Shown: positions 21,107 to 46,492, counted from the first letter of the stretch. The stretch: DNA of 64,000 bases from Haloglomus halophilum (GCF_024298885.1 NZ_CP101166.1:2291149-2355148), one strand, 5' to 3'. Made by a program: numbers and translations. The notes: generated by a model from the letters alone, not told the origin.

Positions 21107-21440
21107 GGTGGCGCTGCTTTCGATGGAACCGGATAGAAAGCCCCCGACCGCTCGACCAGCCGCGGCTCGCTGCGGTCCTCGGTCGCTCACTACGTTCACT
21201 CCCTGCGGTCCTTGTGTCGCCGGGGCTGGGTCGAGCGGCCGGCCCCTTTCAGTCCCGCCCTGTGGCCTGTTCGGGGTAGCGCTCGCGCGTGGTGGTTCCG
21301 GCCGAGCAGGGTATCCCCACCCCTCCCCGCGCGGGCGCCGAGAACGGCTCACCCCCTCGGCCGGAGGCCTCGGGGTTCACCGCGAGTGGCGCCCGCGCGC
21401 TTCCTGCTCCCGGAACCGGTCGGCCAACCAACCGCCCCAC
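21107..21440 (-). repeat. hairpin-rich intergenic repeat element, copy R1 (core about 21133-21267 plus extension to about 21440)
   Basis: The reverse complement of 21133-21267 aligns nearly base-for-base with 23713-23836 and 46366-46492 (GGGACTGAAAGGGGCCGG...CTCGAC...GCAGGGAG...GCGCAGCGAG...TCGAGC...GGGGGCTTTC). The extension 21268-21440 matches the reverse complement of 46205-46360. Confidence 0.75.
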
Positions 21441-21537
21441 GGCCGGGAGCGCGTGGCGCAGCGCGGACGCGCAAGCCCGCGCGACACGGGGAAGGGCAGG
21501 GCCGCCGCGAGCCTCCACACTCCACGGTCGGGTGGGA

Positions 21538-21700
21538 ATGGAAGGGGCCGCGGGCTCGACCCTGCCCGGACGACGCAAGCAGCGGGGCGCTACGCGCCCC
21601 GGGCGAACGGCGAAGCCGTGAGCACCACAGGGTGAGCGAAGCGAACCCGAGGAGCGCAGCGAGGCCCGGCAGGTCGAGCCCGCGGGGGCTTCCTATCTAT
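21538..21700 (+). repeat. repeat element copy R2 (degenerate/rearranged), forming an inverted pair with R1
   Basis: Contains GGAAGGGGCCGCGGGCTCGAC...ACGACGCAAGCAGC...GAGCGAAGCGAACCCGAGGAGCGCAGCGAGGCCCGGCAGGTCGAGCCCGCGGGGGCTTCC, matching the core motif order. Confidence 0.6.
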
Positions 21701-21788
21701 CCCACTCTGCGGTCACTGAGTTCGCAAATTATTGTCCAATCTGGCGATTAAATATTTTATTCTATGGTTTCGATAAGATAGAGCCGAA

Positions 21789-22670
21789 TTACGCGATAAC
21801 CAGCCACGCACCGAACACGGCGAGTGCCCCGAGCGCCGTGCTCCCGACCGCGTGCATCCGGAGCCGGTCCAGAAGCTGGTGTGCCTCGCCCTCCATATCC
21901 TCCAGCTCCGCGACCTGTCCGACCTCCCCACCCAGCTCGCACTCGGGCAGGAAGTCCATCGCGAGGTGGAGGAAGATGCCGGCGGCGAAGCCGAACACCG
22001 CCGCACTGACGTTGTCCGACAGCGGCGGCTGGATGGCGGCCACCGGGATGGCCGTGAGCGCGACGCCGGCGGCCGGGAGCAGCAGGAGCGAGATGCGCTG
22101 GCCCTCGTGGCGGAGGCGGCGGGCAGCCGCGTAGCCCGCGGGCCCCTTGTGCGAGACGATGGCGAGGCCGAGCAGGAGGCCGGGGTCCGGGAGCGCGGCG
22201 TAGATGACGCCGATGATGAGTCCCGCGGCCAGCGAGTGCGCGGTGAGCTCGACTGCGGCGGAGTTGACGCCGTCGACGTGCGCGAGGCGGTGACTGACGG
22301 TGTGGGAGGCGTAGCCCGCGAGCAGCCCCGCGGCGACGCCGAAGCCGCCGATCTGTCCGCCGAGACCGAACGCCTGCGGCAGGAGGAAGACGGCGGCGGA
22401 GGTGACCATCGCGCCGGCCGCGAGGCCGTAGCCCCACACCAGCCCGAACGCGTCGCGGGTCCGGGCGGCACGGTTGCCCAGCAGCGCGGCGCCCGCCATC
22501 GCGACGAACGCGACCCAGCCGACGATCAGGAGCTTCCACAGGCCCTCCGAGACCGCTATCGCGGAGACTGCGAGTAGCCCCACGACGGCCACGGCCCCGA
22601 CCGTCGACACGTCTCCGAGGCTCCCCTCGACCACCGACTCGTCACCGTCCGTCCGTGCCTCCGCACTCAT
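21789..22670 (-). CDS. zupT: ZIP family divalent metal (zinc) transporter
   Basis: HSLAAGLIIG, HKGPAGYAAA, FLHLAMDFLPE: ZIP signature helices with His/Asp/Glu metal ligands. Confidence 0.8.
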   Translation of the reverse strand: MSAEARTDGDESVVEGSLGDVSTVGAVAVVGLLAVSAIAVSEGLWKLLIVGWVAFVAMAGAALLGNRAARTRDAFGLVWGYGLAAGAMVTSAAVFLLPQAFGLGGQIGGFGVAAGLLAGYASHTVSHRLAHVDGVNSAAVELTAHSLAAGLIIGVIYAALPDPGLLLGLAIVSHKGPAGYAAARRLRHEGQRISLLLLPAAGVALTAIPVAAIQPPLSDNVSAAVFGFAAGIFLHLAMDFLPECELGGEVGQVAELEDMEGEAHQLLDRLRMHAVGSTALGALAVFGAWLVIA

Positions 22671-22760
22671 GTTGATAATAACTCTATGGCGCTAGTTAAT
22701 AGAACTGTCGGGGTGGCGTGCGTGGAGTTGTTAACCGGCGGGGTCGGTGCGGCGGCCTGG

Positions 22761-23447
22761 TCATCCCGTCGCCTGCTTCCACGCCCGCAGGTCCAGTACG
22801 CCGCCGTCGAGGTCCTCGGCTGGCGCCTCGGTGGCGGCCCAGTGGAACAGGTCCGCGACCTCTTCGGCGTCGCGTCCGGGTCCCTCCCCGGTCAACTCGG
22901 TCGAGACCTGCCCGGGGTCGACGACGCCGACCGGCACGTCGAGGTCGGCGGCGAACTGCCGGGCGAGTGCCTCCGCGAGCCCCTTCGACACCGCGTAGCT
23001 CCCGAACCCGGCCTTCGCGTCGCGGGCGATGCTCCCGGAGGGCACGAGCACCCGCGCGTCGTCGGCGAGGTGGGGGACGGACTCGCGGATGGTGGCGAAC
23101 ACGCCCCGGCCGTTCGTGCGGAGGTGGTCGTCGAACGCGGCGTAGGACTCGTCGGCGAGCGGTGTCGCTCCCGGGTCGCCGTGGTAGACACCGGCGTTGG
23201 CGACGACGAGGTCGAGCGGGCCCCCCGCCCGGGCGGCCGTCTCGGCGAATCGCTCGACATCGAACTCGTCGCGCACGTCCGCGCGCTGGGTCGTCGCCTC
23301 GCCGCCAGCCGAGACGATGTCGGCGGCCACCTCGTGGAGGGGATCTTCCTCGCGGGCACAGAGTGCGACGTGCGCCCCCTTCTCGCCGAATCGACGGGCG
23401 ACGGCGGCGCCGATGCCGCGACTGCCACCCGTGATGAGTACGTTCAT
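22761..23447 (-). CDS. short-chain dehydrogenase/reductase (SDR)
   Basis: ITGGSRGIG Rossmann motif, NAG, YxxxK (YAVSKGLAEALARQ). Confidence 0.85.
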   Translation of the reverse strand: MNVLITGGSRGIGAAVARRFGEKGAHVALCAREEDPLHEVAADIVSAGGEATTQRADVRDEFDVERFAETAARAGGPLDLVVANAGVYHGDPGATPLADESYAAFDDHLRTNGRGVFATIRESVPHLADDARVLVPSGSIARDAKAGFGSYAVSKGLAEALARQFAADLDVPVGVVDPGQVSTELTGEGPGRDAEEVADLFHWAATEAPAEDLDGGVLDLRAWKQATG

Positions 23448-23559
23448 GACCCGGGGGACGGCCGGCGGGGGGATGGTCGTTTTCCCCGCGGCAGTCCAGG
23501 TCGCGGATGAGCCGTGTCCGATAGTGTCGAGGGTGGATGCTCCATCTGGTCGTTAGAGG

Positions 23560-23836
23560 TGATGTTTCTCCCAGTCGTTCCACGGTGGAGCGCGACGAAC
23601 AGAGCGGTTGGAAGTCCCTGGTCCCTTCCATTCCCACCCGAAATGCCCGTTCCACGGAGCGTACGCACCGAGCCAGCACGGTGTGAAGCGCCCCTGGACC
23701 GCCGAACCGAGCGGGACTGAAAGGGGCCGGCTGCTCGACGAAGCACGACGACGCAAGCACTGCAGGGAGCGAGCGAAGCGAGCGACCGAGGCGCGCAGCG
23801 AGGCACGCGAGTCGAGCAGCCGGGGGCTTTCAACAG
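23560..23836 (+). repeat. repeat element copy R3 (core 23713-23836 plus upstream related segment)
   Basis: Core GGGACTGAAAGGGGCCGGCTGCTCGACGAAGCACGACGACGCAAGCACTGCAGG...GCGCGCAGCGAGGCACGCGAGTCGAGCAGCCGGGGGCTTTC; the upstream CCCTTCCATTCCCACCC is the reverse complement of 21524-21540. Confidence 0.75.
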
Positions 23837-24231
23837 GTTCCCGTCACTGTGTCACCGCACCGAACACATCGCTGATAGAAACGCATGCTCGTTCTCACGG
23901 GCGAGCGAAGCGGGGTCCATATCCGGACACCATCCGGAGTCGTGACGTAACGGCTAAGTTCGCGGCTCCTGATTCGGCACGTATGCGACGGCGCGCGCAC
24001 GCTCGGTTCCGCACGACGCCGAGCGGCGCGTCCGCCCGTCCGTTCTCGAAGGCCGGGAAGCGCAAGCGCAAGCGTCAGTGATGGCTCGCGGCGGGTTGCC
24101 ACCCCGTCCCGGGCCGCTCCCGGTCGCCCGAACTACAACTACATAGGGGAGCGACCCGACGACCTCCCCACGAACGGCCTCGGCCCGCTCCGCGGCGCCC
24201 GCGGCCACCGACACACCACACGACACCCACC

Positions 24232-25131
24232 ATGACACACGACACCTTCGACGGCGTGTTCCCCGCGATGACCACGCCGTTCCACGATGACGAGAGCATC
24301 GACTTCGAGACACTGCAGGCGAACGCCCGCCGACTGGAGGAAGCCGGCGTCGACGGCGTCGTCCCCGTCGGGACGACCGGCGAGTCCGCCACGATGACCC
24401 ACGACGAGCACGTCGAGGTCATCGAGGCGGTCGTCGAGGCCATCGAGGACGTGCCCGTCATCGCGGGCAGCGGCTCGAACAACACCCGCGAGGCGCTGGA
24501 GCTCTCCCGGCGCGCCGAGGCCGCCGGCGCCGACGCGCTGCTCCTGATCTCGCCGTACTACAACATCCCCGAACCCGAGGGGATGGAGCACCACTTCCGG
24601 CAGGTCGCTGACGAGGTCGACCTCCCGCAGATCATCTACAACGTCCCCGGCCGCACCGGGCGCAACATCGCCGTCGAGACGGCGGTCAACCTCTCCAGCC
24701 ACGAGAACATCGTCGGCTACAAGGCCGCCAGCGGCGACATGGGCCGCATCTGCGAGGTCATCGAGCGGACGCGCGAGGAGAACTTCACCGTCCTCTCCGG
24801 TGACGACGGGATGACCCTGCCCGTCGTCGCGACCGGCGGCACCGGCTGCATCTCCGTCGCCGCGAACGTCGAGCCCGAGCGCACCGTGGAGATGGCCCAC
24901 GCGGCACTGGCCGACGAGATGGACCGCGCCCGCGAACTCCACCACGAACTGGGGCCGCTGTTCCGCACGCTGTTCGTCGAGACCAACCCCATCCCCATCA
25001 AGGAGGCCATGGAGATGCGGGGCCACCATCCGCGAACGATGCGCTCGCCGCTGTCGTACCTGAGCGAGCCGAACCGTGACCGCCTCCGCGAGGTGCTGGC
25101 GGCGCTCGAACCCGTCGACGCCGAAGCATGA
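24232..25131 (+). CDS. dapA: 4-hydroxy-tetrahydrodipicolinate synthase
   Basis: DapA/NAL fold with catalytic Lys region (GYKAASGD) and TTGESATMT. Confidence 0.9.
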   Translation: MTHDTFDGVFPAMTTPFHDDESIDFETLQANARRLEEAGVDGVVPVGTTGESATMTHDEHVEVIEAVVEAIEDVPVIAGSGSNNTREALELSRRAEAAGADALLLISPYYNIPEPEGMEHHFRQVADEVDLPQIIYNVPGRTGRNIAVETAVNLSSHENIVGYKAASGDMGRICEVIERTREENFTVLSGDDGMTLPVVATGGTGCISVAANVEPERTVEMAHAALADEMDRARELHHELGPLFRTLFVETNPIPIKEAMEMRGHHPRTMRSPLSYLSEPNRDRLREVLAALEPVDAEA

Positions 25132-25889
25132 GAGTGATTGTCACCGGCGCGACCGGCCGGACCGGCGGCGAGGTCGCACGCGAGGTCGCAGAGCGCGGCC
25201 ACGAGCTCGTCCCCGTCTCGCGCGAACCCGCCGGCACGGTCGCGGGCGCAGACCTTCGGCCCGCCGAGGACCTGCCCGCACTCCTCGATGCCGAGGGCAC
25301 CGTTCTGATCGATTTCACGGTGCCCGTCGCGAGCGCCGACTACATCGCGCAGGCGGCCGAGGCCGGCACGCCTGCGGTCATCGGTACCACCGGCTTCGAC
25401 AGTGAGGGGACTGCCGCGCTGGACGCCGCCGCGGAGTCGATCCCGTTGCTGAAGGCCGCCAACTTCGCCCGCGGTGTGCAGGCGCTGCTGAACGTGGTCC
25501 GAGAGGCCGCGACGGCGCTCCCGGGCTACGACGTGGAACTGACCGAGACCCACCACAACGGGAAGCGCGACGCTCCGAGCGGGACCGCGAAGACGCTGCT
25601 CGACGCTCTGGACGACGCCCGCGACGAGGCGCTCGACCGGACCCACGGCCGCGAGGGCGAGGACCCGCGTGAGCCGGGGCAGGTCGGCGTTCACGTCCGC
25701 CGGGCGGGCGACGTTCGGGGCGAGCACGAACTCATGTTCGCCGACAACGACGAGGTGCTCACGCTCGCCCATCGCGCCGAGTCCCGCGGCGTGTTCGCCG
25801 CCGGCGCGGTCGATGCAGCCGAGTGGCTTCCCGGGCACGAGGCGGGCTGGTACGAGTTCGGGGACGTTATCGGGGACGGGGGTGACTGA
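25128..25889 (+). CDS. dapB: 4-hydroxy-tetrahydrodipicolinate reductase
   Basis: MRVIVTGATGRTG NAD(P)-binding, ELTETHHNGKRDAPSGTA catalytic motif; ATGA overlap with dapA. Confidence 0.9.
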   Translation: MRVIVTGATGRTGGEVAREVAERGHELVPVSREPAGTVAGADLRPAEDLPALLDAEGTVLIDFTVPVASADYIAQAAEAGTPAVIGTTGFDSEGTAALDAAAESIPLLKAANFARGVQALLNVVREAATALPGYDVELTETHHNGKRDAPSGTAKTLLDALDDARDEALDRTHGREGEDPREPGQVGVHVRRAGDVRGEHELMFADNDEVLTLAHRAESRGVFAAGAVDAAEWLPGHEAGWYEFGDVIGDGGD

Positions 25890-25895
25890 CAACCC

Positions 25896-26729
25896 ATGAG
25901 CACGCTGGAAGCGGACGTGGCGGAACTGGCAGCGCGGTACGATGCCGGCAACGTCGACGCGGTCGGAAGCGAGGAGCTGGATACGCTGGAGGCCTTCCTC
26001 GATGCCCTCGAGTCGGGCGAGATTCGCGCCGCTGAACCCGGCGACGACGGCTGGGAGGCCAACGAGTGGGTCAAGCGCGGCATCCTGCTCAACTTCGGCC
26101 TGCGCGATATCCAGGCCTACGAACACGGCGGCGTCACATATCACGACGTCCTGCCGCTGCGCGAGACCGGCGACCTGCCCGAGCGCGGGACCCGCAACAC
26201 CCCGACCGGCACCGTCATCCGCCGGGGCGCGTACGTCGGTGCCGACGCCATCATGATGTCGCCCGCGTTCGTCAACATCGGCGCCCACGTCGGCGACGGT
26301 ACGCTGGTCGACTCCTGCGACACGGTCGGCTCCTGTGCCCAGATCGGCGACGACGTGAAACTCGGCGCGAACACACTCATCGGCGGCGTCCTCGAACCCG
26401 TCGAGGCCGAACCCGTCGTCGTCGAGGACGGTGTCTCGCTGGGCGCGGGCTGTCGGGTCACGTCGGGCTTCGAGGTCGGCGAGAACTCCGTCGTCGGCGA
26501 GAATACGCTCCTGACGCCGCGCATCCCGGTGTACGACCTCGTCGAGGACGAGGTCATCTACGGCCAACTCCCGCCGGAGCGCCGGGCGTTCATCCGGTAC
26601 GTCGAGTCGAGCGTCGGCGAGCACGACCTGTTCGACGGCGGCGCGTACAAGCCAGCGGTCGTGGCGACCCACGTCGAGGAGTCGACGCTGGAGGCGACCG
26701 AGCGCGAGGACGCACTGCGGGACAACTGA
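25896..26729 (+). CDS. dapD: 2,3,4,5-tetrahydropyridine-2,6-dicarboxylate N-acyl(succinyl)transferase
   Basis: Left-handed beta-helix hexapeptide repeats (GAYVGADAIMMSPAFVNIGAHVGDGTLVDS...) with a DapD-type N-terminal domain. Confidence 0.8.
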   Translation: MSTLEADVAELAARYDAGNVDAVGSEELDTLEAFLDALESGEIRAAEPGDDGWEANEWVKRGILLNFGLRDIQAYEHGGVTYHDVLPLRETGDLPERGTRNTPTGTVIRRGAYVGADAIMMSPAFVNIGAHVGDGTLVDSCDTVGSCAQIGDDVKLGANTLIGGVLEPVEAEPVVVEDGVSLGAGCRVTSGFEVGENSVVGENTLLTPRIPVYDLVEDEVIYGQLPPERRAFIRYVESSVGEHDLFDGGAYKPAVVATHVEESTLEATEREDALRDN

Positions 26730-26785
26730 GATTCAGTATGGTTTCCACTCGAACGCACAGCGACGACGGACAACGGCGGAACCTC

Positions 26786-27000
26786 GGAAGCCCTCGCGCT
26801 CTCGACTCGCGCGCCTCGCTGCGCGCTTCGGCCTCGCTTCGCTCGGCCTGCAGTGCTTGCGTCGTCCTCAGAATCGAAGATTCTGCTGGGCTGCGGGAGA
26901 GCTTCGCTCTCCCGAACGGCGTGCTTCGTCGAGAGGATTGTCGGCTCCGCCGACAATCTATTAGCTGGCGGCTTCGCCGCCAGCCGCGCTCGCCCTTCCA
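26786..27000 (-). repeat. repeat element copy R4, inside the lysine operon (dapD-lysA spacer), core interrupted by a 52-nt two-hairpin insertion
   Basis: CTCGACTCGCGCGCCTCGCTGCGCGC...CCTGCAGTGCTTGCGTCGTC[52-nt insert]GTGCTTCGTCGAGAGG is the reverse complement of the R3 core; downstream perfect hairpins GATTGTCGG-ctcc-CCGACAATC and CTGGCGGC-ttc-GCCGCCAG. Confidence 0.7.
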
Positions 27001-27059
27001 GTCCGCCAGGACGTCGCCTGTCACACCGAGCGACGCTACTTGCTGGAGAGGTGCGTGCC

Positions 27060-28376
27060 ATGCCTGATGGCGAGGGCTGGCCGTCGACGACGGACAACCC
27101 GGCGGTCCGTCGGCTCTCGGACTGGCCGGCCGAACCGCTCCGGAACCTGGCCGACGAGTACGAGACGCCGCTGTACGTGGCGGACCTGGACCGCGTGAAG
27201 GCCAACGCCTCGCGGTTGCGGTCGGCGTTTCCGGACGCGGACCTGAGCTACGCGGTGAAGGCCAACACCACGCGGCCGGTGCTAGAGACCCTCGCCGACC
27301 GCGGTGTCGGCGCCGAGTGCGCGGCGGCGGGCGAGGTGAAGCGGTCGCTGGAGGCCGGGTTCCCCGCCAGTCGGGTCCGGTACACGGCGGTCAACCCGCC
27401 GGCACGTGACCTCGACTACGTCTGCGGGCTGGACGCCGCGGACGACATGGTGCTCACGGTCGGCGCGATGGACACCCTGAACCGGGTCGCACAGCGCGGC
27501 TTCCGGGGACGGCTCTGTGTCCGCGTGAATCCGGGTGTCGGCGCGGGCCACCACGCGAAGGTGTCGACCGGCGGGGAGCCGAAGTTCGGCGTCCCGTACG
27601 ACCGGACGGCGGCGGTCGTCGAGCAGGCGCTCGAGCACGGCTTCGAGGTGGTCGGGCTCCACGCCCACGCCGGGAGCGGTATCTCCGGCGACGACCTCTC
27701 CGCACACCGCGAGCTCGTCCGGCGAATGGGCGGGCTCGCGGGCGACGTGGAGGAGAGCCTGGACTTCGTCGCCGTCGGCGGCGGGTTCGGCGTCCCGTAC
27801 CACGAGGACGAGCCGCCGCTCGACCTCGACACGGTGGCCGAGGCGACCCGGGAGGCGTACCGCGAGGGGTGGCTGGAGGCCGTGGCGGGCGACGACGGCG
27901 AGGACGCGCCGGCGCCGCCACAGCTCGCCATCGAGCCGGGGCGCTACTTCGTTGCCGACGCCGGCGTCCTGCTGACGACCGTCAACACCGTCAAGCCGAC
28001 GCCGGAGACGACCGTCGTCGGCATCGACGCCGGGATGACGACCCTGGTCCGGCCAGCGATGTACGACGCCTACCACGAACTCCGGAGCCTGGAGCCGGAC
28101 ACGCCACGGCGCGACGCCGTCGCCTGTGATATCTCCGGGCCCGTCTGCGAGACCGCGGACGTCTTCGCAAGGGACCGACCCCTGCCTGACCCGTCACGCG
28201 GCGACCTGCTCGCCATCGGCAACGCCGGCGCCTACGGCTACGAGATGGCCAGCAACTACAACTCTCGGCCGCGGCCGGCGGTGGTCGCGCTGGAGCACGG
28301 CGAGCCCCGGCTGGCGGCGCGACGCGAGCGGCTGGACGAATTAACCCGGCTAGAATCAGAAGCGGAGGACTCTTGA
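27060..28376 (+). CDS. lysA: diaminopimelate decarboxylase
   Basis: PLP fold-III decarboxylase: SYAVKAN (PLP Lys), GLHAHAGSG, CGPVCE. Confidence 0.9.
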   Translation: MPDGEGWPSTTDNPAVRRLSDWPAEPLRNLADEYETPLYVADLDRVKANASRLRSAFPDADLSYAVKANTTRPVLETLADRGVGAECAAAGEVKRSLEAGFPASRVRYTAVNPPARDLDYVCGLDAADDMVLTVGAMDTLNRVAQRGFRGRLCVRVNPGVGAGHHAKVSTGGEPKFGVPYDRTAAVVEQALEHGFEVVGLHAHAGSGISGDDLSAHRELVRRMGGLAGDVEESLDFVAVGGGFGVPYHEDEPPLDLDTVAEATREAYREGWLEAVAGDDGEDAPAPPQLAIEPGRYFVADAGVLLTTVNTVKPTPETTVVGIDAGMTTLVRPAMYDAYHELRSLEPDTPRRDAVACDISGPVCETADVFARDRPLPDPSRGDLLAIGNAGAYGYEMASNYNSRPRPAVVALEHGEPRLAARRERLDELTRLESEAEDS

Positions 28377-28456
28377 GCGCGACTCACATCTAGCCATCAA
28401 CGAACGACGTGTCAGACGGTCTCACGGGTCGGCACGTCACCCCACGCGAGGACACG

Positions 28457-29422
28457 ATGGTACACATCCAGAAATACCACGGAACGGGCAACGACTTCGT
28501 CGTCGTGGACGCCGCCGAGCGGGTCGGTGACCGGCGGGCGTTCGCACGAGCACTCTGTGACCGAACCACTGGCATCAGCCACCCGGACAGCCCCCACATC
28601 GGGGCGGACGGCGTGCTCTTCCTCCATCTCGAGACGGAGTACGCCTCCCCGCGCGTCGTGATGACGCTCGTCCAGCCGGACGGGTCCGTCGCCGCGATGT
28701 GTGGCAACGGCGCGCGCTGTGCGGCCCGCTGGGCCGCCGAACGCACCGGGAGCGACGAGGTGATGATCGATACGCAGTCCGGGACCCGTCGCGCGGTCAT
28801 CGCACGCGAGGCTCCGGACGACGGCAACCGTGGCCACGGCGACGACCGGGGCTTCGGCGACGATGTCACCATCGAGATGGGTCGCCCGCGGTTCCTCCCG
28901 GGCGCGGTCCCGGTCCAGACGGCCGAACCGCTCGTCCAGGAACACGTCGAGGGCCTCACCGTCACGGCCGTCAACACGGGCGTCCCGCACGCGGTCTCCT
29001 TCGTCGAGGACGTGGACGCGGTGGACCTCGAGGACGTGGCACCCGCGGTCCGACACGCCGACGTGTTCCCGGAGGGCGCGAACGTGACTCTCGCCTCGCG
29101 TGTCGCACCGGTCGGGGACGAGGACGCGGCCTTCCGCCAGCGGACCTACGAGCGCGGCGTCGAGGGTGAGACGGATTCCTGTGGGACGGGTGCGGTCGCC
29201 ATCGCGGCGGTCGCCCACCGACTCGGACGAATCGGAACCGGCGAGACCGTCCGGGTCACCCCGCCGGGTGGTGACCTGTTCGTCACGGTCACCGACGACG
29301 ACGCGCTCCTCCGCGGGCCAGCCGTCTTCGAGTTCGAGGCCGAGGTCCCGGAGCCGGGCGTGGGGCCGGACGCCGAACTGGATGTCGATTTGACGGATGC
29401 GGGTACCAACACGGGCGACTAG
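28457..29422 (+). CDS. dapF: diaminopimelate epimerase
   Basis: MVHIQKYHGTGNDFVVVD opening and two catalytic Cys (CGNGARC, SCGTGAVA). Confidence 0.85.
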   Translation: MVHIQKYHGTGNDFVVVDAAERVGDRRAFARALCDRTTGISHPDSPHIGADGVLFLHLETEYASPRVVMTLVQPDGSVAAMCGNGARCAARWAAERTGSDEVMIDTQSGTRRAVIAREAPDDGNRGHGDDRGFGDDVTIEMGRPRFLPGAVPVQTAEPLVQEHVEGLTVTAVNTGVPHAVSFVEDVDAVDLEDVAPAVRHADVFPEGANVTLASRVAPVGDEDAAFRQRTYERGVEGETDSCGTGAVAIAAVAHRLGRIGTGETVRVTPPGGDLFVTVTDDDALLRGPAVFEFEAEVPEPGVGPDAELDVDLTDAGTNTGD

Positions 29423-29426
29423 ACGC

Positions 29427-30533: not shown

Positions 30534-30774
30534 GGCGAACAGGCGGTGCTGTGGTCGGGTCCGGCACGCGTCGCACCACGCACCCGCAGCCGCGTGCCGG
30601 GCAGCGCTCAGGGCACACGGGGCCTTGGTCCCGTTCCGGTACTTGAACCTACGCCGGGCGACCCCCGAAGCCCGACCACTGTCACACGGTTTCGATATAT
30701 GGTGTAATTTGAGATTATAACGACACAATCAACTCGTGTTTCAACATGTTATTGAAGAAAATTTGATTGTACGC

Positions 30775-31302: not shown

Positions 31303-31378
31303 TACTGGGGCGTAGACGGGGGAGCGACAAGAGCGCGTCGGGGCCAACCTTCAAGCCCCGTTGCGCCGAAGGCGCCGT

Positions 31379-32623: not shown

Positions 32624-32634
32624 TTCCGCCGCGG

Positions 32635-35532: not shown

Positions 35533-35599
35533 ACCTCACTGGATGGGAGAGACACGGATAGTGGGTTTGGTATGATGGGTTAATCGGGTGGTAGAGGTC

Positions 35600-36000
35600 C
35601 TGACGGGCTGTTATTGGCGAATTCAGCGACCGTGGCTGGAGTCGTGGCGTCCATCGAAGCCGGTTGCTTGGTACGGCGGGGAAACTTCCGATCCGCAATC
35701 GGATCAGAATCGAGCGGTTGCGTACGCGCGAGCAGGCGGGAACTCCGTTCCCGGAGCCCGCGGCGAAGCCGCGGACAGGGCGGGACTCCGTCCCGCTTGC
35801 AGTCGGACGTAGTCCGACGACGAAGCGAGCGCGTTTGGGTTCGAGACGGCTTCGCCGTCTCGTCCTCCCGAAAATCTCCGATTTTCGGAGACACCAGCCC
35901 GAGCGACCGAAGGGAGCGAGGGCTGGCATTTTCTCTGAACGTTTTTGCGACGAGCGGTGTCCACAGGCTCACGCCTACGGCGCGAGTCGAGGGCACCCGA
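35600..36000 (+). repeat. hairpin-dense intergenic region, loosely related to the R-family repeats (R5); possible structured RNA
   Basis: Perfect hairpins GTCGGAC-gta-GTCCGAC, CGAGACGGC-ttc-GCCGTCTCG, CGAAAAT-ctccg-ATTTTCG, GCCGCGGC-gaa-GCCGCGGAC; shares GACGACGAAGCGAGCG and GCGCGAGTCGAG with the core. Confidence 0.45.
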
Positions 36001-36012
36001 GGAGAGAAAAGC

Positions 36013-37233: not shown

Positions 37234-37349
37234 CAGGTGTATGGAAGTTGGGTGTTCTCGTTAGAAGTGTCTTTGGGTTGCTACAGGTACTCATACCAGC
37301 TGCGGGCTGGGCCGAACGGCCTCCGGACGGCCACGTCGTGAGGGCGGCC

Positions 37350-39143: not shown

Positions 39144-39200
39144 GACGCGACCTAACGGTGGGGGCGTGGTAAACGCATCGTCCGGGGTCCTCCCCGCCGG

Positions 39201-40196
39201 TTACGGCCTGGGGGCGGCCTTCTGGAGGGCTGTCTCGGCGATGTTCCCGCCGTAGTCGGCGGCCCGCGTGAGCGAGTCGACGACCAGCCCGAGCAGCTGG
39301 GCCTGCTGGGGGTCGAGGTCGCGGATGAGCGCATCCACCTCGCGGGCCTGGGGATCGATATCCTCGATCTGCCGGCGGGCATCGTTGGCCATGCGGGTGG
39401 CCTCCTCGGAGTCGTCCTCCAGCAGCGCGTCCATCGCCGTCTCGATGACCTCCTCGGCTGCGACGTGGAGGTTCTCCAGTCCCGTCGCGGCGTCCGCTGG
39501 CACCTCGTCGAGCTCCTGGGCGTGGGTGGCGATCTTGGTCGCGTGGTCGGCGACGCGCTCCAGCTGGCGGGCCGACGAGTGGTAGTCGAAGCAGGTCTCC
39601 CGGTCCAGCCCCACGTCCGCGGCCGCCGCGGGATCCCGAAGGACCGACCGGAACACGCGCGAGACCATCGACCAGAGCCGGTCGACGTCGTCGTCGCGCT
39701 GGATCACGTCCGTCGCGAGGTCGGCGTCGTTCTCGACCAGTGCGGCCACGGCGTCCTGCAGCATCGTCACCGCGACCAGCCGCATCCGTGTGATGGCGTT
39801 GTGCAGCGACAGCTCCGAGGAGTCGAGCAGGTCCTGCAGGCGGACGCGCTCGGAGGTCTCGCCGATGACCTCCAGGCCGACCAGCGACTGGACGGCGTCG
39901 CGGATGGTCCGGCGCTGGGCCGCGGTCACGCGCGAACTCTCCAGCGTGATGATGTCGAAGCCGCTGACGTACATCGTCACGACCGCGCGCATGAGGTCGC
40001 GCTCCTCCAGCCCGCTGATATCGAGGGTACCCTCGACCTTCTCCTCGTCGCGACGCGGCGTCAGGAGGAGTGCGTCGTCCTCGGGATGGAACTCCACGAC
40101 GCTCCCGCCGCTGACCCCGTTGTCGGTCGCCCAGTCCTTCGGGAGCGAGACGGTGAACGTCGACCCCCCCGTCACCTGCACCTTGCGCGTCTCCAT
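39201..40196 (-). CDS. phosphate uptake regulator, archaeal PhoU-like (SpoVT/AbrB-type N-terminus plus two PhoU repeats)
   Basis: MKVQVTGGSTFTVSLPKDWA AbrB-like swapped hairpin; PhoU helical repeats. Confidence 0.8.
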   Translation of the reverse strand: METRKVQVTGGSTFTVSLPKDWATDNGVSGGSVVEFHPEDDALLLTPRRDEEKVEGTLDISGLEERDLMRAVVTMYVSGFDIITLESSRVTAAQRRTIRDAVQSLVGLEVIGETSERVRLQDLLDSSELSLHNAITRMRLVAVTMLQDAVAALVENDADLATDVIQRDDDVDRLWSMVSRVFRSVLRDPAAAADVGLDRETCFDYHSSARQLERVADHATKIATHAQELDEVPADAATGLENLHVAAEEVIETAMDALLEDDSEEATRMANDARRQIEDIDPQAREVDALIRDLDPQQAQLLGLVVDSLTRAADYGGNIAETALQKAAPRP

Positions 40197-40766
40197 AGCC
40201 GACGGTGAGTGCCACCGGGTAATAAAATATGGGCATTTCTATATACATTCGAGTACATCTCCAGTCTATGCCGGAGGCGCTCCGCTCGGGGACGGATGGC
40301 CGCGGCTCGCGGGCTATCCGAATCTGGGGATATATGCATCTATACGTCCGTATACTGCTATCTGGGCAGCAGAACGTATGAGGTCATTGCCGAATATTCT
40401 AATATATAGATATGGTTCGGCGCGCGGGATTCGTGGTACTCTCCCGCTCCAGCGTTCAACTGGACCCCGGTGATAACACGACGGGAGCGCGACGCAGTAT
40501 CGTGACGGGGCTTCCCGACCGCGGCGGGGCTTCCCGACCGCGGAGGGGGTACCAACCCGACATCGTCGTGGACGCGGGGGGATACGACGGGTTCCGTCAC
40601 GGAACCGGCCGTGTTCCCCCGGGCGCTCCCCTGGAGTCCGCCCGGGATGCCCTCGTCGCGCTCGTCGGTCGTTCGAGCAGCCCGCCGGTCGGGCGTGACT
40701 GTGTGAGAACATTTCTCTATATAGATGACATAGTAGGATATTTACTTCAACTACCGATACGGTCTG
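40197..40766. promoter_or_regulatory. divergent promoter region of the pst operon and the phoU-like gene; AT-rich islands plus an 18-bp direct repeat
   Basis: AT-rich blocks at 40205-40260 and 40320-40420; GGGGCTTCCCGACCGCGG x2 at 40506-40541; TATA-like ctatatagat at 40707-40716. Confidence 0.4.
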
Positions 40767-41855
40767 GTGATGTCGGACCGCCCCGCCAGCCGCCGCACAG
40801 TACTCGCGGGCGTGGCTGGCACTGCCGCCTCGCTTGCGGGCTGTATCAGCACGAGTCCACAGCCACCCGGCGCCAGCGCCGCCACCGACGACGGCGGCGG
40901 CGGTGGCGGGTCGGCGACTGTTCTCAAGCTCGGTGGCTCCTCGACGGTGTACCCGATAGCGAACCGCGGGGGGTCGTTCTGGAACTCGAACCCACCGCCG
41001 TCCGACGAGGAGTACTGGGGTCCGTCCGAGTACGGGATCGCGACCAACGAGCGCCTCGCCGACTACTTCGCCAGCAAGTACGGGTTCGAGGCGACCGGCG
41101 GCGCCTCGCCGCCGTTCCGCGTCTCGGTCGGCCTGAGTCACTCCGGTACCGGCCTGGAGAAGGTCGAAGCCGGACAGGTGGACATCGGGAACGCCTCGGC
41201 GCCGGTCGCCGCGGAGTTCCCCGAGAGGTCCGAGGAGGAGCTCTCGAAGTTCACGAACCACGTCGTCGGCGTCGACGCCCAGCCCATCGTCGTCAGCAAG
41301 GAGATCTACGACGCGGGCGTCACGGAACTCACCGGCGAACAGGTCCGGGCCATCTACCGCGGCGATGTCACCTCGTGGAGCGAGATCGACGCGTACGACG
41401 GCCCGGACCGGGAGATCCAGGCCATCGGTCGCTCCGTCGGCTCGGGGACGGACACCGCCTTCCGCGCGAACCTGCTTGGGTCGCCCGACGCCGACATGTC
41501 CGGCGTCGACATCCGGCGTGGGCAGAACCAGCAGGTGAAAGCCACCGTCTCCCGGTCGGACAACGCCATCGCCTACATGGCGCTCGCGTTCGTCGACCAG
41601 CAGGCGGCGCCGGCCATCTCACTGACGTTCGAGGGGACCACCTACACCCCCGGAGAGAACCTCTCTGACCCCGGGTACCCGCTCGCGCGTGACCTCCACT
41701 GCTACACCTGGGAGGGCACCTCGAAGAAGGAGGCGGCGTTCCTGCACATGCTCATCAGTGACTTCGGCCAGCAGAACTTCGTCGCGTTCGCGGGCTACTC
41801 GAAGCTGACCGACGAACGGCAGCAAGAAGAACTCGACAAACTCCCGGACCAATGA
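40767..41855 (+). CDS. pstS: phosphate ABC transporter substrate-binding lipoprotein
   Basis: Tat-like RRTVLAGVAGTAASLAGC lipobox; PstS fold motifs (GGSSTVYP, GSGTGLEKV). Confidence 0.85.
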   Translation: MMSDRPASRRTVLAGVAGTAASLAGCISTSPQPPGASAATDDGGGGGGSATVLKLGGSSTVYPIANRGGSFWNSNPPPSDEEYWGPSEYGIATNERLADYFASKYGFEATGGASPPFRVSVGLSHSGTGLEKVEAGQVDIGNASAPVAAEFPERSEEELSKFTNHVVGVDAQPIVVSKEIYDAGVTELTGEQVRAIYRGDVTSWSEIDAYDGPDREIQAIGRSVGSGTDTAFRANLLGSPDADMSGVDIRRGQNQQVKATVSRSDNAIAYMALAFVDQQAAPAISLTFEGTTYTPGENLSDPGYPLARDLHCYTWEGTSKKEAAFLHMLISDFGQQNFVAFAGYSKLTDERQQEELDKLPDQ

Positions 41856-42895
41856 GTACCCACACGAGTCGCCTCGACCGGGTCCGCGACGCCGACCACG
41901 GGCTGAAACTCGTCGGGAGCGTCGGCGGTGTCGCCATCGCCACCGCGCTGGTCGCGTTCCTCGTCGCGCCGGCACTCACCCTCTACCCGCTGCTGGCGTT
42001 CGTCGCCGTCATCGGCTACGGCTGGCTCCGATACCAGGAGTCGACCGCGCGGTTCCTGATGTTCCTCACGACGGTCTCGACGGTCCTCATCCTCGGGCTC
42101 ATCACCGTCTACCTCCTCATCCGGTCGTTCCCCGCATTCGGCGAACTCGGCATCGACATGTTCACCGGAACGGAGTACGGCGCGGCGGGCTACTCGCTGG
42201 TCCCGATGATATGGGGCACACTGCTGACGACGCTCATCGCGATGCTCATCGCCGGGCCGCTGGGCATCGCGGGCGCCCTGTTCCTCGCCGAGATCGCGCC
42301 CGGCTGGGTCCGGGAACTGCTCAAGCCCGCCGTCGAGGTGCTGGCGGGCATCCCCTCCATCGTCTACGGCTTCCTCGGGCTGGTCGTCCTGAGTCAGTAC
42401 CTGTTCGACCAGTTCGACATGCCCGTGTTCGGGAGCCTGCTCGCCGTCGGCCTCGTCGTCGGCGTGATGGCGCTGCCGACGGTCATCTCGGTGGCCGAGG
42501 ACGCCATCACCAGCGTCCCGGACAGCATGAAGGACGGCTCGCTCGCGCTCGGCGCGACCGACTGGCAGACCATCAAGAGCGTCACCGTCCCGACCTCGTT
42601 CTCGGGTGTCTCCGCGGCGGTCATCCTCGGCGTCGGCCGGGCGGTGGGGGAGACGATGGCCGCGACGGTCATCCTCGCCAACATCGCCGACCTGCCGGAC
42701 CCGCTGTACGACGTCTTCGGCAACACCGTCACGCTGACCAGCCTCATCGCCAGCCAGTACGGCAACGCCAGCGGCCTCCAGATGTCGGTCCTGTTCGCGG
42801 CCGGCGTCGTGCTGTTCGTGACGGTGATGACGCTGAGCATCGGCTCGCAGTACGTCGAGGTTCGCATGGAGCGCAAGCTCGGAGGGCGACAATGA
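41852..42895 (+). CDS. pstC: phosphate ABC transporter permease
   Basis: 6 TM; EAA-like loop (AEDAITSVPDSMKDGSLALGATDWQT). Confidence 0.85.
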   Translation: MSTHTSRLDRVRDADHGLKLVGSVGGVAIATALVAFLVAPALTLYPLLAFVAVIGYGWLRYQESTARFLMFLTTVSTVLILGLITVYLLIRSFPAFGELGIDMFTGTEYGAAGYSLVPMIWGTLLTTLIAMLIAGPLGIAGALFLAEIAPGWVRELLKPAVEVLAGIPSIVYGFLGLVVLSQYLFDQFDMPVFGSLLAVGLVVGVMALPTVISVAEDAITSVPDSMKDGSLALGATDWQTIKSVTVPTSFSGVSAAVILGVGRAVGETMAATVILANIADLPDPLYDVFGNTVTLTSLIASQYGNASGLQMSVLFAAGVVLFVTVMTLSIGSQYVEVRMERKLGGRQ

Positions 42896-44514
42896 GTACG
42901 GACACACGCGCGCTCGTCGCGACGGAATCGTCGACGCTGGAACTGGCCGGTGGGGGGCTCGTCGCCCTCTCGCTCCTGTTGGTCGTCGGGGGCCTCGTCG
43001 GGCTGTTCGGGGTCGTCCCGGTCGGCGCGACCGTCGCTGGCGTCCCGTTCGCCACGCTCCTCGGGGCCGGCCTGCTGGTGCTGGGTGCCGGGGTACTCGG
43101 TATCGGTGCGGCCTCGCGGACGGGGCTCGTGGCGACCGACCCGAGTCGGAGCGCCGGGCTGCTCGCCGGCGGCGTCTTCGCGCTGTTCGGCCTCGTCGTC
43201 GGGGGACTCGTCGGTGCGTTCGCGCTCGGCCTCGCGACGGCCTGGCCGGTGACGGCACTGCTCGTCGGAGTCGGCGCGGGCGCGGCCACGGTCCTCCCGC
43301 GCGAGGACCTCGGCAGCACGCTCGTCCCCGGGAGCGTCGCTGTCGTCTCCGGGCTGACCATGCTGTCGGGGCTGGTCGGTCCGGGCTGGTCGTGGCCCAT
43401 CGGTGACCTCTCGGCGACGCTGTACGCCGAGGTGGCCATCCCGCTGCTGGCGGCCGTCGCCGGCCTCCTGGCCGCCTGGACCGCCGCGAAGGCGTACGGT
43501 GGCTTCGGGAGCCGGGGGCGACAGCTCGGCGCGTACCTCCTCATCGGCGCGAACGCGGCCTGGATGGCCGCGCTGCTGGTGGGGCTGGTCGCGTTCGTGC
43601 TCATGAAGGGGTTCGCTCCGATGACCCGTGGCATCCGCTACGGGCTGTTCGTCCAGCCCTGGACCTGGTTCTACTTCCCGCCCATCGAGGAGTACGTCGT
43701 CATCAGCGGGCCCGTCATCTGGTTCTACTGGCCGTTCGTGATGGAGGGGGTCGCGCTGACGAACGATATCAACGGCGTCCTGCCGGCCATCGTGGGGACG
43801 TTCTGGCTGGTGCTCGGGGCGGTGACGTTCGCGGTGCCGCTCGGGGTCGGGGCGGCCGTCTTCCTCACGGAGTACGCCGAGCAGGGCCGGTTCACCGGGC
43901 TCGTCGAGGTCTCGACCAACGGGCTCTGGTCGACGCCGAGCATCGTCTACGGCCTGTTCGGGCTCGCATTCCTCGTTCCGCGGCTCGGGAACACGACCTC
44001 CATCCTCGCGGGCCAGCTCGTGCTCGGGTTCATGCTGCTCCCGCTGGTGGTCATCACCTCGCGCGAGGCGCTCAAGAGCGTCCCCGACGCCTACCGTGAC
44101 GCCTCGGCGGCGCTGGGCGTGAGCAAGTGGGAGACCATCAAGAGCGTCGTCCTGCCGGCGGCGCTACCGGGGGTCATCACGGGCATCATCCTCGGCGTCG
44201 GCCGCATCGCCGGCGAGACGGCGCCCATCCTGCTGGTGATGGTGTCCGACCCGTTCCCCAGCGCGGCAGCGAGGGTCGTCCAGGGGTCGTTCCACTTCAC
44301 GGGCTCGTTCCCGTTCGTGGCTGCCCCGACCATCGACCTCGTGCAGTCCTCGTCGGCGCTGCCCTACCAGCTGTACGCCGTCATCAGCGCCGGACTCGAC
44401 CAGAACATGGCTTTCGCCTGGGGGACGGCGCTCGTGTTGCTGCTCGTGGTGCTGAGCTTCTACGCGGTCGGTATCGCGTCGCGGGTCTACTTCCGGAGGA
44501 AACTCAACCAATGA
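42892..44514 (+). CDS. pstA: phosphate ABC transporter permease with extended N-terminal membrane domain
   Basis: [28 protein letters not shown] loop; ATGA overlaps on both sides. Confidence 0.85.
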
Positions 44515-45452
44515 GCGAATCATCACTCACCGACAGCGAGATGGAGACGGGAGAACTGGACGAGAGCACCGCCGGCATCGACGCCGGGGGCTCGACCACG
44601 ACCGACGGCGAGACCGAGGAGGAGGTTCAGGCGGAGTGGACCGACTACAGCTTCGACGGCGAGCCGAAGATCTCCGTCGAAGACCTCGATGTCTGGTACG
44701 GCGACGACCACGCCATCCAGAGCGTCTCGATGGATATCCCCGAGGAGTCCGTGACGGCGCTCATCGGCCCCTCGGGCTGTGGGAAGTCGACGTTCCTGCG
44801 GAGCATCAACCGCATGAACGACCGTATCAACATCGCCCGGACGGAGGGGCGGGTCGCCATCGACGGGCAGGACATCTACCAGGACGGCACCGACCTGGTC
44901 GAGCTCCGCAAGCGCGTCGGGATGGTGTTCCAGTCGCCGAACCCGTTCCCCAAATCCATCCGCGACAACATCGCCTACGGCCCGCGCAAGCACGGCGACA
45001 TCGAGCGCGGCCTGCTCGCCCGGCTCCTCGGGCGTGACGAGAAAGCGGAGGAGGACCGACTCGTCGAGCGCTCGCTCCGGCAGGCGGCGCTGTGGGACGA
45101 GGTGAGCGACCGCCTCGACGACAACGCCATCGGCCTCTCCGGCGGGCAACAGCAGCGCCTCTGCATCGCGCGCTGTCTCGCCGTCGACCCCGAGGTCATC
45201 CTGATGGACGAGCCGGCGTCCGCGCTGGACCCCGTCGCCACCTCGAAGATCGAGGACCTCATCGAGGAGCTGTCCGAGGACTACACGGTCGTCGTCGTCA
45301 CCCACAACATGCAGCAGGCCGCCCGCATCTCCGACCAGACGGCAGTCTTCCTCACGGGCGGCGAGCTGGTCGAGTACGGCGACACCGACCAGATATTCGA
45401 GAACCCGGAGAGCCAGCGCGTCGAGGACTACATCACCGGGAAGTTCGGCTGA
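44511..45452 (+). CDS. pstB: phosphate ABC transporter ATP-binding protein
   Basis: GPSGCGKST Walker [10 protein letters not shown] signature, ILMDEP Walker B. Confidence 0.9.
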
Positions 45453-45453
45453 C

Positions 45454-46122
45454 GTGCCCCGCGAGGAGTTCCAGGCCGAACTCGACGACCTCCGAACGGA
45501 GATCGTCGAGCTGGGCCGCACGGTGCTGGCAGGGTTCGAGCGGGCCGCGGTCGCGCTCGTCGAGAACGACACCGAGGCCGCCCGCGCCGTCATCGATGGT
45601 GACGCGACGGTCAACCGGCGCTACCTCGACCTCGAATCCCGCTGTATCGACCTGCTCGCCCTCCAGCAACCCGTCGCCGGTGACCTCCGGTTCGTCGCCT
45701 CCTCGTTCAAGATTCTCACCGACATCGAACGCATCGGCGACCTCGCGGTCAACCTCGCCGAGCGCGCCCGCGACAAACGCGAGGACTACCTCCCCGAGGT
45801 GAACGTCGACGACCTCACCGGCATCGCCGCGGAGATGCTCGACCGCGCGCTGGACGCCTACGCGGCCGGCAACGCCGCTGCCTGCCGCGCGGTCGCGGAC
45901 CAGGACGACGAACTCGACGGGCTCTGTGAGCGCGTCGCCGGCCTCGTCATGGAGGATCTCGTCGGCCGCGAGGTCGGCCACGAGATGGCGGACGACCTGC
46001 TGGCCGGTGTCCGCCGCCTGCTGCTGACCGTGCGGGATATCGAGCGCGTCGGCGACCACGCCGTCAACATCGCCGCGCGGACGCTGTATATGGTGGAAGG
46101 GACCGAGACGTTGTTGTATTAG
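45454..46122 (+). CDS. phoU: phosphate transport system regulator PhoU
   Basis: Two PhoU repeats (E/D-x-x-x-D: ERIGDLAVNLAE, ERVGDHAVNIAA). Confidence 0.85.
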   Translation: MPREEFQAELDDLRTEIVELGRTVLAGFERAAVALVENDTEAARAVIDGDATVNRRYLDLESRCIDLLALQQPVAGDLRFVASSFKILTDIERIGDLAVNLAERARDKREDYLPEVNVDDLTGIAAEMLDRALDAYAAGNAAACRAVADQDDELDGLCERVAGLVMEDLVGREVGHEMADDLLAGVRRLLLTVRDIERVGDHAVNIAARTLYMVEGTETLLY

Positions 46123-46204
46123 GTTGTGAATTTCACTCGTACGCTCTGTGCAGCGAGATTTCTGCTATGCTTGAGCACTAAAACGGAAATTTCGAAGAGA
46201 ATAA

Positions 46205-46492
46205 TCAGGCTGGTTCCGAGAACAGGAAGCGCGCGAGCGCCCACCACCGAGACCGCGACCGGGGGGAGCGTGTCGAGGTAATCGGCGCTCGCGCGGGGAG
46301 GTGTGGGGACCCCGCGCTCCGCTGGAACCGCCACACGCGAACGCTCGGTGCAACCAGCCACAGGGTGGGACTGAAAGGGGCTGCACGCTCGACGAAGCAC
46401 GGCGACGCAAGCACCGCAGGCCGAACGAAGTGAGGCCGCGGCGCGCAGCGAGCCGCGCGAGTCGAGCGTGTAGGGGCTTTCTACAGTCGCTG
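46205..46492 (+). repeat. repeat element copy R6 (extension 46205-46360 plus core 46366-46492), upstream of rpl15e
   Basis: Core CCACAGGGTGGGACTGAAAGGGGCTGCACGCTCGACGAAGCACGGCGACGCAAGCACCGCAGG...GCGCGCAGCGAGCCGCGCGAGTCGAGCGTGTAGGGGCTTTC, over 85% identical to R3; extension equals the reverse complement of the R1 extension. Confidence 0.75.

Follow-up and report, generated by a model that had tools for sequence, protein, structure and literature searches.

The question raised by this locus is what kind of element the long, hairpin-forming repeats between its genes represent. The window, meaning the whole stretch of DNA analyzed, comprises 64,000 nt of Haloglomus halophilum (NZ_CP101166.1:2291149-2355148; G+C ~70%), for which an initial annotation had described a family of intergenic repeats fitting either a mobile element, similar to a MITE (miniature inverted-repeat transposable element), or a group of structured small RNAs. 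Our results show that the copies belong to one family, whose members form a strand-specific hairpin, are homologous to the left ends of insertion sequences (IS) of the IS200/IS605 group, pair head-to-head, are conserved in place, and are gained or lost between relatives. The explanation we prefer, with slightly better than even confidence, is that they are Halobacteria-wide, transposase-free hairpin elements sharing ancestry with IS200/IS605 ends (IS605/IS1341 type, ISNph20-like). Their origin would resemble that of PATEs (palindrome-associated transposable elements), the transposase-free derivatives of haloarchaeal IS605-type elements, and their behavior that of the repetitive extragenic palindromes (REPs) and REPINs of bacteria.

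Five copies, named R1 to R5 (Table 1), were detected in the window. A blastn self-search joined them with E values of 1e-7 to 1e-47, and a repeat finder agreed. The pattern of the 3' part of the core, CGCAGCGAGN{7,12}GTCGAGN{4,10}GGGCTT, occurred at exactly these five sites, with 0 expected in shuffles. A covariance model built from 75 copies, using intergenic cores only, returned exactly the same five at 44.8-117 bits when the window was scanned with filters off; below these came one copy read in antisense (22 bits) and a coding-region hairpin (20 bits), and unrelated hairpins can reach ~20 bits with this model. These results essentially agree with the coordinates and strands assigned to the copies beforehand. 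This includes the minus-strand copy placed at 26786-27000, which is a full element carrying two ~50-nt hairpin insertions in its 5' arm (four extra C-GNA-G hairpins at two junctions); when positions 26780-27015 were folded on the minus strand, the canonical outer helix closed (-125.3 kcal/mol, z -5.05). The folds of R1 and R5 reached -66.3 kcal/mol (z -3.4) and -68.6 kcal/mol (z -6.3), respectively. The extension of ~160 nt that the first and last copies had been said to share is real, R1 and R5 being 74% identical by blastn over 285 nt with the extension included. The supposed identity above 85% was found in sub-segments only, and whole cores are 79-82% identical. All window copies are intergenic and, as first proposed, non-coding: the 10 open reading frames (ORFs) that span them gave no Pfam match or other protein family, and indels between orthologues are not multiples of three.

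The family is not confined to Haloglomus. When one unit served as a blastn query against plasmids, the ~110-nt core turned up in 39 plasmids of haloarchaea representing >20 genera, including pHV4 of Haloferax volcanii; nearly all of these plasmids lacked an annotation for it. A pattern scan with one genome per species gave at least 117 loci, roughly a dozen of them bacterial among the matches listed. The model confirmed 120 matches in the first 100 of these loci; 114 of the 120 were joined to the five window copies in a set of 119, and the bacterial loci (about ten among the 100 scanned) yielded no model match. Confirmed copies come from Halobacteria only, other archaeal classes having had no separate search, and the family looks specific to this class. 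A search for association with viruses gave just three pattern matches in 2.9 million viral contigs. Nearly all copies in the set (112/119) are intergenic; with respect to the genes on either side, all four possible arrangements are about as frequent as expected at random, and clustering of 261 neighboring proteins revealed no recurrent neighbor, whether transposase, orc, or other.

The core measures 105-130 nt, or up to ~225 nt with inserted hairpins, and folds as a single long rod; the whole unit, at 105-290 nt, is too short for a transposase. All copies had been described as built from perfect short stems, which holds for the accessory modules only (7-10-bp stems, 3-nt loops); the core is one long imperfect hairpin. 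Its outer helix reads GAAAG/CTTTC or the covarying GGAAG/CTTCC and CGAAG/CTTCG and encloses a G-rich 3x3 internal loop followed by an 8-13-bp stem, the sequence of which varies from copy to copy while remaining self-complementary in every case. Beyond this stem, in the region of the conserved strings GACGCAAGCACCGCAG and GAGGAGCGCAGCGAG, purine-rich internal loops separate small helices, and the tip is a C-GNA-G hairpin, a type of triloop that makes up 36 of ~58 apical loops. Most cores are preceded by a semi-conserved leader of ~35-45 nt (…GTCGGCC…GACCAACC…CGGG). The 5' tail of the core reads GGGYGGGACU, with no GTAG, and the 3' end is sharp, consisting of CUUUC followed by T-enriched sequence.

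Covariation among copies, a check that the initial annotation had proposed, was strong. Standard pairs occupy 94.9% of the paired cells in the 75-sequence alignment, compared with 75% for shuffled partners and 26-43% for partners slid by 1-3 columns, and the covariation score was 0.495 versus 0.161 (shuffled) and at most 0.079 (slid). Compensatory, double-sided changes were present in 17 of the 26 pairs, and 344 cells were altered on both sides, as in the exchange of AAGCAC/GAGCGC for AAGGAC/GACCGC. The non-canonical pairs are strongly asymmetric, with 65 G·T against 16 A·C, 61 G·A against 3 C·T, and 15 G·G against 4 C·C, and 72% of the unpaired positions are purines. Together, the strand-biased non-canonical pairs and the purine-rich unpaired positions indicate that the fold that counts is formed by the strand with the sequence GGGACTGAAAGGGGC…GGGGGCTTTC. 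The model scored 104-117 bits on this sense strand and 11-22 on the antisense strand. The hairpin structure of the core is real and strand-specific.

Table S9 of PMC3119063 gives the subterminal palindromes of haloarchaeal IS605-type elements and PATEs. For comparison with the family, we used seven IS-derived plasmid loci, six of which encode TnpB and one of these six also TnpA. The model built from the cores matched the left-end hairpin in six of the seven, with scores of 33.9 (E 6e-6), 22.3, 18.4, 14.7, 12.5, and 10.4 bits. By blastn against the IS left ends, 44 of the 119 cores gave plus-strand high-scoring segment pairs (HSPs) of 31-36 nt at 83-92% identity (best E 1.5e-9), all on the TnpB-encoding strand and none on the minus strand. 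The common block reads AAGCA[A/C]CGCAG – apical hairpin – CGAG[G/T]AGCGCAG, and alternative apical hairpins are also common to both (GAGCGAAGCGAC, GGCCGAAGRCC, and GAGCGACCGAAGGGAGCGAG). R3 corresponds to this block with one extra GAGC/GCGA rung, as judged by eye, the window cores giving no HSP below 1e-3. The 5' end of the core, CTGGAAGGGGC, resembles the left-end termini CTGGAATTAGGCGC and CTGAATGCAGGCG, and the 3' third has a weak likeness, on the plus strand only, to the right-end hairpin. We infer from these likenesses that the invariant CGCAGCGAG could be the junction of the left-end …AGCGCAG with the right-end CAGCGAG…, a "terminal-only" fusion of the sort described in PMC3119063. In four IS605-type elements (L130, L131, L133, and L134, about 1650-1820; L numbers denote comparison loci from other genomes), a small DUF2080 "transposase-associated" gene stands between the left-end hairpin and tnpB, and the model match is the hairpin directly 5' of this gene.

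Copies also occur in pairs. All 18 pairs separated by <600 nt are head-to-head, as are two further pairs in Haloglomus relatives. Their interiors are GC-rich and in some cases only 28-33 nt long, and no direct repeats were found at the doublet flanks. A rule by which each doublet joins two different subtypes proved inconsistent on inspection by eye. We also considered archaeal origin recognition boxes (ORBs) and rejected them: the motif order is unlike that of published haloarchaeal ORBs, the doublet interiors are GC-rich, and no neighbor gene recurs.

Comparison with close relatives revealed conservation in place. Window positions 11.8-32.9 kb have a syntenic counterpart of 21 kb in the chromosome of Haloglomus salinum (L124), at 88-93% nucleotide identity; among the window genes, which are closest to Haloglomus, the ZIP transporter is 90% identical to that of H. 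salinum and eL15 94-95% to Haloglomus-like entries. The orthologous positions of the R1/R2 doublet and of R4 are occupied in H. salinum, and the spacer of R3 holds one copy. The doublet cores are 87% identical for R1 (L124 11356-11510) and 91% over aligned positions for R2 (L124 10958-11082, which lacks the apical insertion), against 55% for the flanking spacer and 70% for the four-fold sites of the adjacent ZIP and short-chain dehydrogenase genes. R4 has orthologous model matches at L124 5927-6022 and, in a relative, at L125 1218-1315. Differences between orthologues cluster apically, with whole hairpins gained or lost, and in the R1 extension the stems are kept and the loops have diverged. 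In three genera of Natrialbaceae, a copy sits in the same operon gap in the same orientation, with several compensatory changes in its variable stem. Orthologous copies are thus about as strongly conserved as genes, which points to a possible host-level role or to gene conversion.

The same comparisons revealed turnover. R5 is missing in a close relative (L119), where the syntenic spacer between the PhoU and eL15 genes holds in its place (L119 2600-3000) a different, ~115-nt GC-rich hairpin-prone sequence, along with a partial match to the R5 extension; this spacer seems to gather different structured modules. The R3 spacer of H. salinum contains a single full-length copy, aimed at the dehydrogenase gene (L124 8960-9074), and the counterpart in the window is a 30-nt relic that aligns to both ends of that copy. 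The R3 unit (~218 nt) sits head-to-head beside the relic and is missing from the orthologous spacers of H. salinum and L125. Its borders carry the direct repeats ACGCA (23663-23667 and 23881-23885), which are either a 5-bp target duplication or the trace that deletion through microhomology left in the other lineage. That R3 and R5 are absent from relatives is evidence of mobility, each event being either a gain or a loss. The whole R1/R2 doublet, at 75-82% identity, lies between unrelated genes in a locus from a metagenome-assembled genome (L085), which also has the R1 extension; the leader module of R2 likewise adjoins cores there and in L031, L072, and L068. In Haloparvum alkalitolerans, paralogous copies are near-identical in the core, within a common unit of roughly 500 nt. 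The 3' tail of the Haloparvum copies (…CCGGCTGGGGCTTTCTGG…) occurs as a tandem module of ~78 nt that varies in copy number (L035 3945-4345 and L106 1045-1300). Overall, copies are more alike within a genome than between genomes (80.6% versus 71.2%), and for 18 of 50 copies the nearest relative is in the same genome, compared with 3.6% expected.

Table 1. Positions in the window of the family members, their accessory domains, and one excluded region.
Feature	Position	Strand	Basis
R1 core hairpin, GAAAG/CTTTC type, left arm of head-to-head doublet	21133..21257	-	model 110.2 bits
R1 5' extension domain, multibranched hairpin module common to R5	21258..21445	-	blastn to 46212-46365, 72.7%/161 nt
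R2 5' leader, G-rich (GGGGAAGGGCAGGGC... module)	21446..21539	+	85% identical to H. salinum
R2 core hairpin of GGAAG/CTTCC type, apex bearing an inserted hairpin of ~41 nt; right doublet arm	21540..21696	+	model 48.5 bits
Relic copy, 30 nt, internally deleted: 5' arm GGGTGGGAATGGAAGGG joined to 3' arm CCAGGGACTTCC	23607..23636	-	model 16.1 bits
R3 unit: 44-nt leader, core 23712-23834, ~46-nt trailer	23663..23885	+	core 104.6 bits
R4 full element, GGAAG/CTTCC, CGAG variant	26786..27010	-	model 44.8 bits on 26789-26886
Not a member: array of short perfect C-GNA-G hairpins	35660..35925		no blastn match; best model 9.2 bits
R5 5' extension domain	46207..46365	+	homologous to R1 extension; separate multibranched domain in fold
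R5 core hairpin, between PhoU-family gene and eL15 promoter/leader	46366..46484	+	model 117.3 bits

In IS200/IS605 elements and bacterial REPs, folded single-stranded DNA is handled by Y1 (HUH) transposases that read one strand, and IS200-type TnpA is the sole Y1 class reported in Archaea (PMC6006769). TnpA-IS200 is present in haloarchaea, for example in ISHsi2 (L128), and PATEs derived from IS605-type ends have been documented there (PMC3119063). A Y1 single-stranded DNA model would account for four features of the family, namely the strand-specific covariation, the free stem with fixed unpaired bases, the lack of DDE-type ends, and the IS homology on the active strand, and this is why we favor a PATE- or REP-like element moved in trans. 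The top strand would fold as single-stranded DNA, to be recognized and mobilized by a Y1 (HUH) enzyme, a TnpA-IS200-type transposase acting in trans. Insertion of new copies would favor sites next to the 5' leader of a copy already present, in the opposite strand, and so produce the head-to-head doublets. Selection on the fold, or gene conversion, might then maintain the inserted copies; apical hairpins would come and go, and whole hairpins would sometimes be deleted to relics of ~30 nt. A folded single strand that functions in one orientation, with its structure and a few unpaired bases conserved and its stem free, is also found in integron attC sites and in the ssoA of rolling-circle plasmids. 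By analogy, the present family may share their principle, and only that; its copies have no integrase, cassette array, or plasmid context.

Several findings weigh against this explanation. Sequence-only profiles barely link the cores to the left ends (E 0.059 with nhmmer, the search in the other direction giving no match), and we rejected such a profile as proof of the link because it is too weak alone. Given this result and the ~20 bits that unrelated hairpins can reach, the link rests on the 31-36-nt blastn matches and the one 34-bit model match. No tnpA or tnpB homologue was found by tblastn within ~1 Mb of sequence around the copies; as no neighbor protein family recurs either, the mobilizing enzyme is one that we infer entirely. 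The conserved leader that precedes the core ends in GGGA, not in a TTAC/TTAG-type target. A direct repeat of 5 bp borders the inserted R3 unit, and IS200/IS605 transposition should make none. Conservation of orthologous copies above the neutral rate is unexpected for a purely selfish element. The mixed orientations of the five copies within 25 kb (-,+,+,-,+) reveal no obvious bias with respect to the replication strand. Finally, we tried the C-GNA-G triloops as a signature of DNA hairpins and dropped them because the same loop, as C-GAA-G, occurs in the Rfam eL15 leader RNA of the window, so that it does not discriminate between DNA and RNA.

The known elements nearest in kind are the PATEs and IS605-type ends (for example HqIRS71 and ISNph20; PMC3119063). 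Like the present family, they are transposase-free, non-coding, and devoid of DDE-type terminal repeats, with GC-rich subterminal hairpins that contain nested C-GNA-G mini-hairpins, and they undergo internal "core deletions" that leave short terminal-only relics. Unlike them, the present element is a single long hairpin, which appears to fuse left-end-like and right-end-like halves; its long outer helix (GAAAG...CTTTC) and its G-rich internal loop are additions, and a conserved leader stands ahead of its core instead of the TTAC/TTAG target. The family also differs in being conserved class-wide rather than in one species, in its head-to-head doublets, and in the above-neutral conservation of its orthologues. 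SMR-A, a small mobile repeat of Haloquadratum walsbyi (PMC3119063), is similar in size (~110 bp), has prominent inverted repeats, no target duplication, and no known transposase, and is associated with IS605-type or PATE palindromes; its copies, however, are >95% identical and species-specific, whereas those described here are diverged and class-wide. In the comparison with SMR-A, the tables of that paper gave no sequence match.

The bacterial REP/BIME/REPIN sequences offer the closest parallel in behavior. They too are extragenic imperfect palindromes related to IS200/IS605 ends, with a strand-specific hairpin and a conserved 5' single-stranded tail, and they occur in many copies, set out as inverted doublets; lineage-specific variants, long vertical persistence, and slow turnover are further points in common. 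The core described here differs in being 3-5 times longer (105-130 versus 20-40 nt), in lacking a GTAG-type 5' tetranucleotide, and in its archaeal host. REPs are served by RAYT (TnpA-REP) transposases, encoded by a single-copy gene that the repeats flank, and no RAYT gene was found beside any copy among the neighbors examined; a published survey found no proteins of this class in Archaea (PMC6006769). A stronger version of our explanation, which we advance only tentatively, is that the family is an archaeal counterpart of REPs and REPINs: a domesticated, vertically persistent, class-wide population of IS200/IS605-end hairpins, serviced by an enzyme (possibly a domesticated Y1/HUH protein) and having a host-level role. 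The above-neutral conservation of orthologues, the lineage-specific covariation of the terminal helix, and the obligate head-to-head doublets would then be signs of domestication, and the role would lie, for example, in bidirectional protection or insulation of transcript ends or in structuring the genome of these gyrase-containing, polyploid archaea.

The main rival, which we regard as rather unlikely, is that the copies act as structured RNA, the hairpin serving in neighboring transcripts as a 3'-end block, terminator, insulator, or processing site, or being an independent small RNA. For the hairpin within transcripts there are analogies in the REPs of bacterial mRNAs and in the IS200 left-end hairpin, which acts against read-through transcripts. 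Strong covariation, tolerance of G·U pairs, and apical or junction "expansion segments" are typical of functional RNAs, and the slower evolution of orthologous copies than of four-fold sites, the sharp CUUUC end with T-enriched sequence after it, and the stability of the thermodynamic folds in both orientations would also fit. So would the position of the copies, usually 50-130 nt from a gene boundary, with singletons showing a slight tendency to point at the start of a gene downstream (49 versus 30, p 0.04), and the AT-rich stretch directly upstream of the R5 extension. Against this, no promoter-like AT peak was detected within 250 nt upstream of the copies, where AT is ~33% throughout and the GC content matches that of coding sequence (on the downstream side lies normal spacer, richer in AT), and the short GC-rich interiors of some doublets leave no room for a promoter. 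About one-quarter of the copies have no neighbor gene able to give sense transcription, which equals the random expectation, and if either orientation worked, the 4:1 asymmetry of G·T over A·C would be unaccounted for. Rfam, a scan of which had been suggested at the outset, left the copies without a match: at gathering thresholds, Rfam 15 recovered only the eL15 leader from the window, and positions 20900-27200 at E<=10 gave nothing relevant. The supplements of a halite metatranscriptome paper contained no matching sequence. A role at the RNA level may be complementary to the IS-derived origin that we favor rather than exclusive of it.

We consider it quite improbable that the copies are inert relics, that is, ancient IS200/IS605 ends that are immobile and functionless and owe their conservation to gene conversion in polyploid haloarchaeal genomes. 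Their age (~80% identity), the lack of transposase genes nearby, and the greater likeness of copies within than between genomes, as concerted evolution would give, are consistent with it. Gain and loss between congeneric species, the Haloparvum paralogues that are near-identical in the core, and the occurrence of the same doublet in different gene contexts argue otherwise, and each copy keeps its own stem with compensatory changes instead of being homogenized.

Still less probable is a classical MITE, a deletion derivative of an IS with a DDE transposase, moved by cut-and-paste and possessing terminal inverted repeats and target-site duplications. The copies are indeed long inverted repeats, non-coding, dispersed, and intergenic; with the haloarchaeal MITEs of the MITEHsal and MITEHwa series (PMC7002104) they have in common that they are short, dispersed, and non-coding. 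Those MITEs, however, share the terminal inverted repeats of DDE-type IS, have regular target duplications, and are near-identical within a genome. The search for target-site duplications in our family produced a single candidate, ACGCA at R3, which deletion in the other lineage explains equally well, and none at the doublet flanks. Identity within a genome is only ~80%, the structure is strand-specific, the ends to which the copies are homologous are those of IS200/IS605, in which terminal inverted repeats are lacking, no transposase recurs nearby, and no parent IS with these termini was seen. The "MITE-like" label of the initial annotation survives in that the repeat is transposase-free, related to IS ends, and variably present between congeners; it fails on the DDE-type terminal repeats, on the single candidate duplication, and on the divergence of paralogues alongside the above-neutral conservation of orthologues.

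Orphan guide-RNA genes, whose stand-alone transcripts would resemble the TnpB omega RNA or the IS110 bridge RNA and would be remnants or partners of RNA-guided transposon nucleases, are the least credible alternative: the 3' third of the core resembles the right-end hairpin that ends the TnpB omega RNA and has a sharp boundary beside variable DNA, but the best homology is to the left end, outside the omega RNA, the variable segment is a stem covarying on both sides and not an unpaired guide loop, no tnpB lies within ~1 Mb of the copies, and the H. volcanii pHV4 copy that adjoins the IS110-like ISHvo9 and ISHvo10 lies ~170 nt past the end of ISHvo9, an adjacency that we take as coincidence.

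The description of the family as previously unclassified is correct in that it has no Rfam family and no account in the open-access literature text searched, an earlier description elsewhere being possible; its kind was already known from the PATEs and SMRs of Haloquadratum (PMC3119063). Several features are in neither Rfam 15 nor the text searched: the fused hairpin with its great length, its conservation across the class, doublets that are obligately head-to-head, expansion by hairpin modules, and the conservation of copies at their sites. If our explanation is true, REP/REPIN-like biology, documented in bacteria, would extend to a second domain, raising the question of which enzyme serves it. 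In the genomes of haloarchaea, the element accounts for many "gene-less" spacers that are long and GC-rich and for conserved but spurious ORFs, and the covariance model is ready for its annotation. Tractable species such as Haloferax volcanii gain a defined element for studying effects on transcription ends, mRNA stability, replication, and recombination.

A more distant sixth copy had been placed at 35600-36000. We ruled it out, as the region has no blastn match to the copies and its best model score has an E value of 5.7. The region is an array of short perfect hairpins, with at least seven of 7-9 bp capped by C-GNA-G or C-TNC-G triloops. One module (35901-35920, GAGCGACCGAAGGGAGCGAG) is a 20-mer identical to the apex of the IS605-type left end in L129, and part of the array matches, at 85%, a segment adjoining a core in locus L005. 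Triloops of these two types occur in 13 of the 16 such intergenic hairpins of the window, and hairpins within genes have varied loops.

Other features of the window were recorded alongside the family. The eL15-Euryarchaeota ribosomal-protein leader of Rfam matched positions 46598-46680 (38.7 bits), just 5' of the eL15 gene (start 46699), and contains a GGGGGC-GAA-GCCCCC hairpin. A palindromic hairpin in the coding region of dapA (24368-24444) scored 20 bits with the element model and also matched a microRNA model on both strands; we rejected it as a family member and take it to be an unrelated coding-region hairpin. The ~355 nt upstream of dapA (DHDPS; window 23886-24231) are ~97% identical in H. 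salinum and a second genome, compared with four-fold-site identities of 81% for dapA and 70% for the other neighbors. This region had no Rfam match, no convincing ORF, and a fold that is not unusually stable (z -1.1), and it may serve the lysine (dap) operon as a conserved leader or as a regulatory region. A tRNA scan of the window found no tRNAs. The gene at 4218-6614 contains, at 4793-5570, eight in-register copies of a ~49-nt unit spaced at multiples of 3 nt, which suggests that its product is a protein with tandem sequence repeats. The gene at 56331-57596 has tandem duplications of 51-52 nt, 96-98% identical, at 56526-56710.

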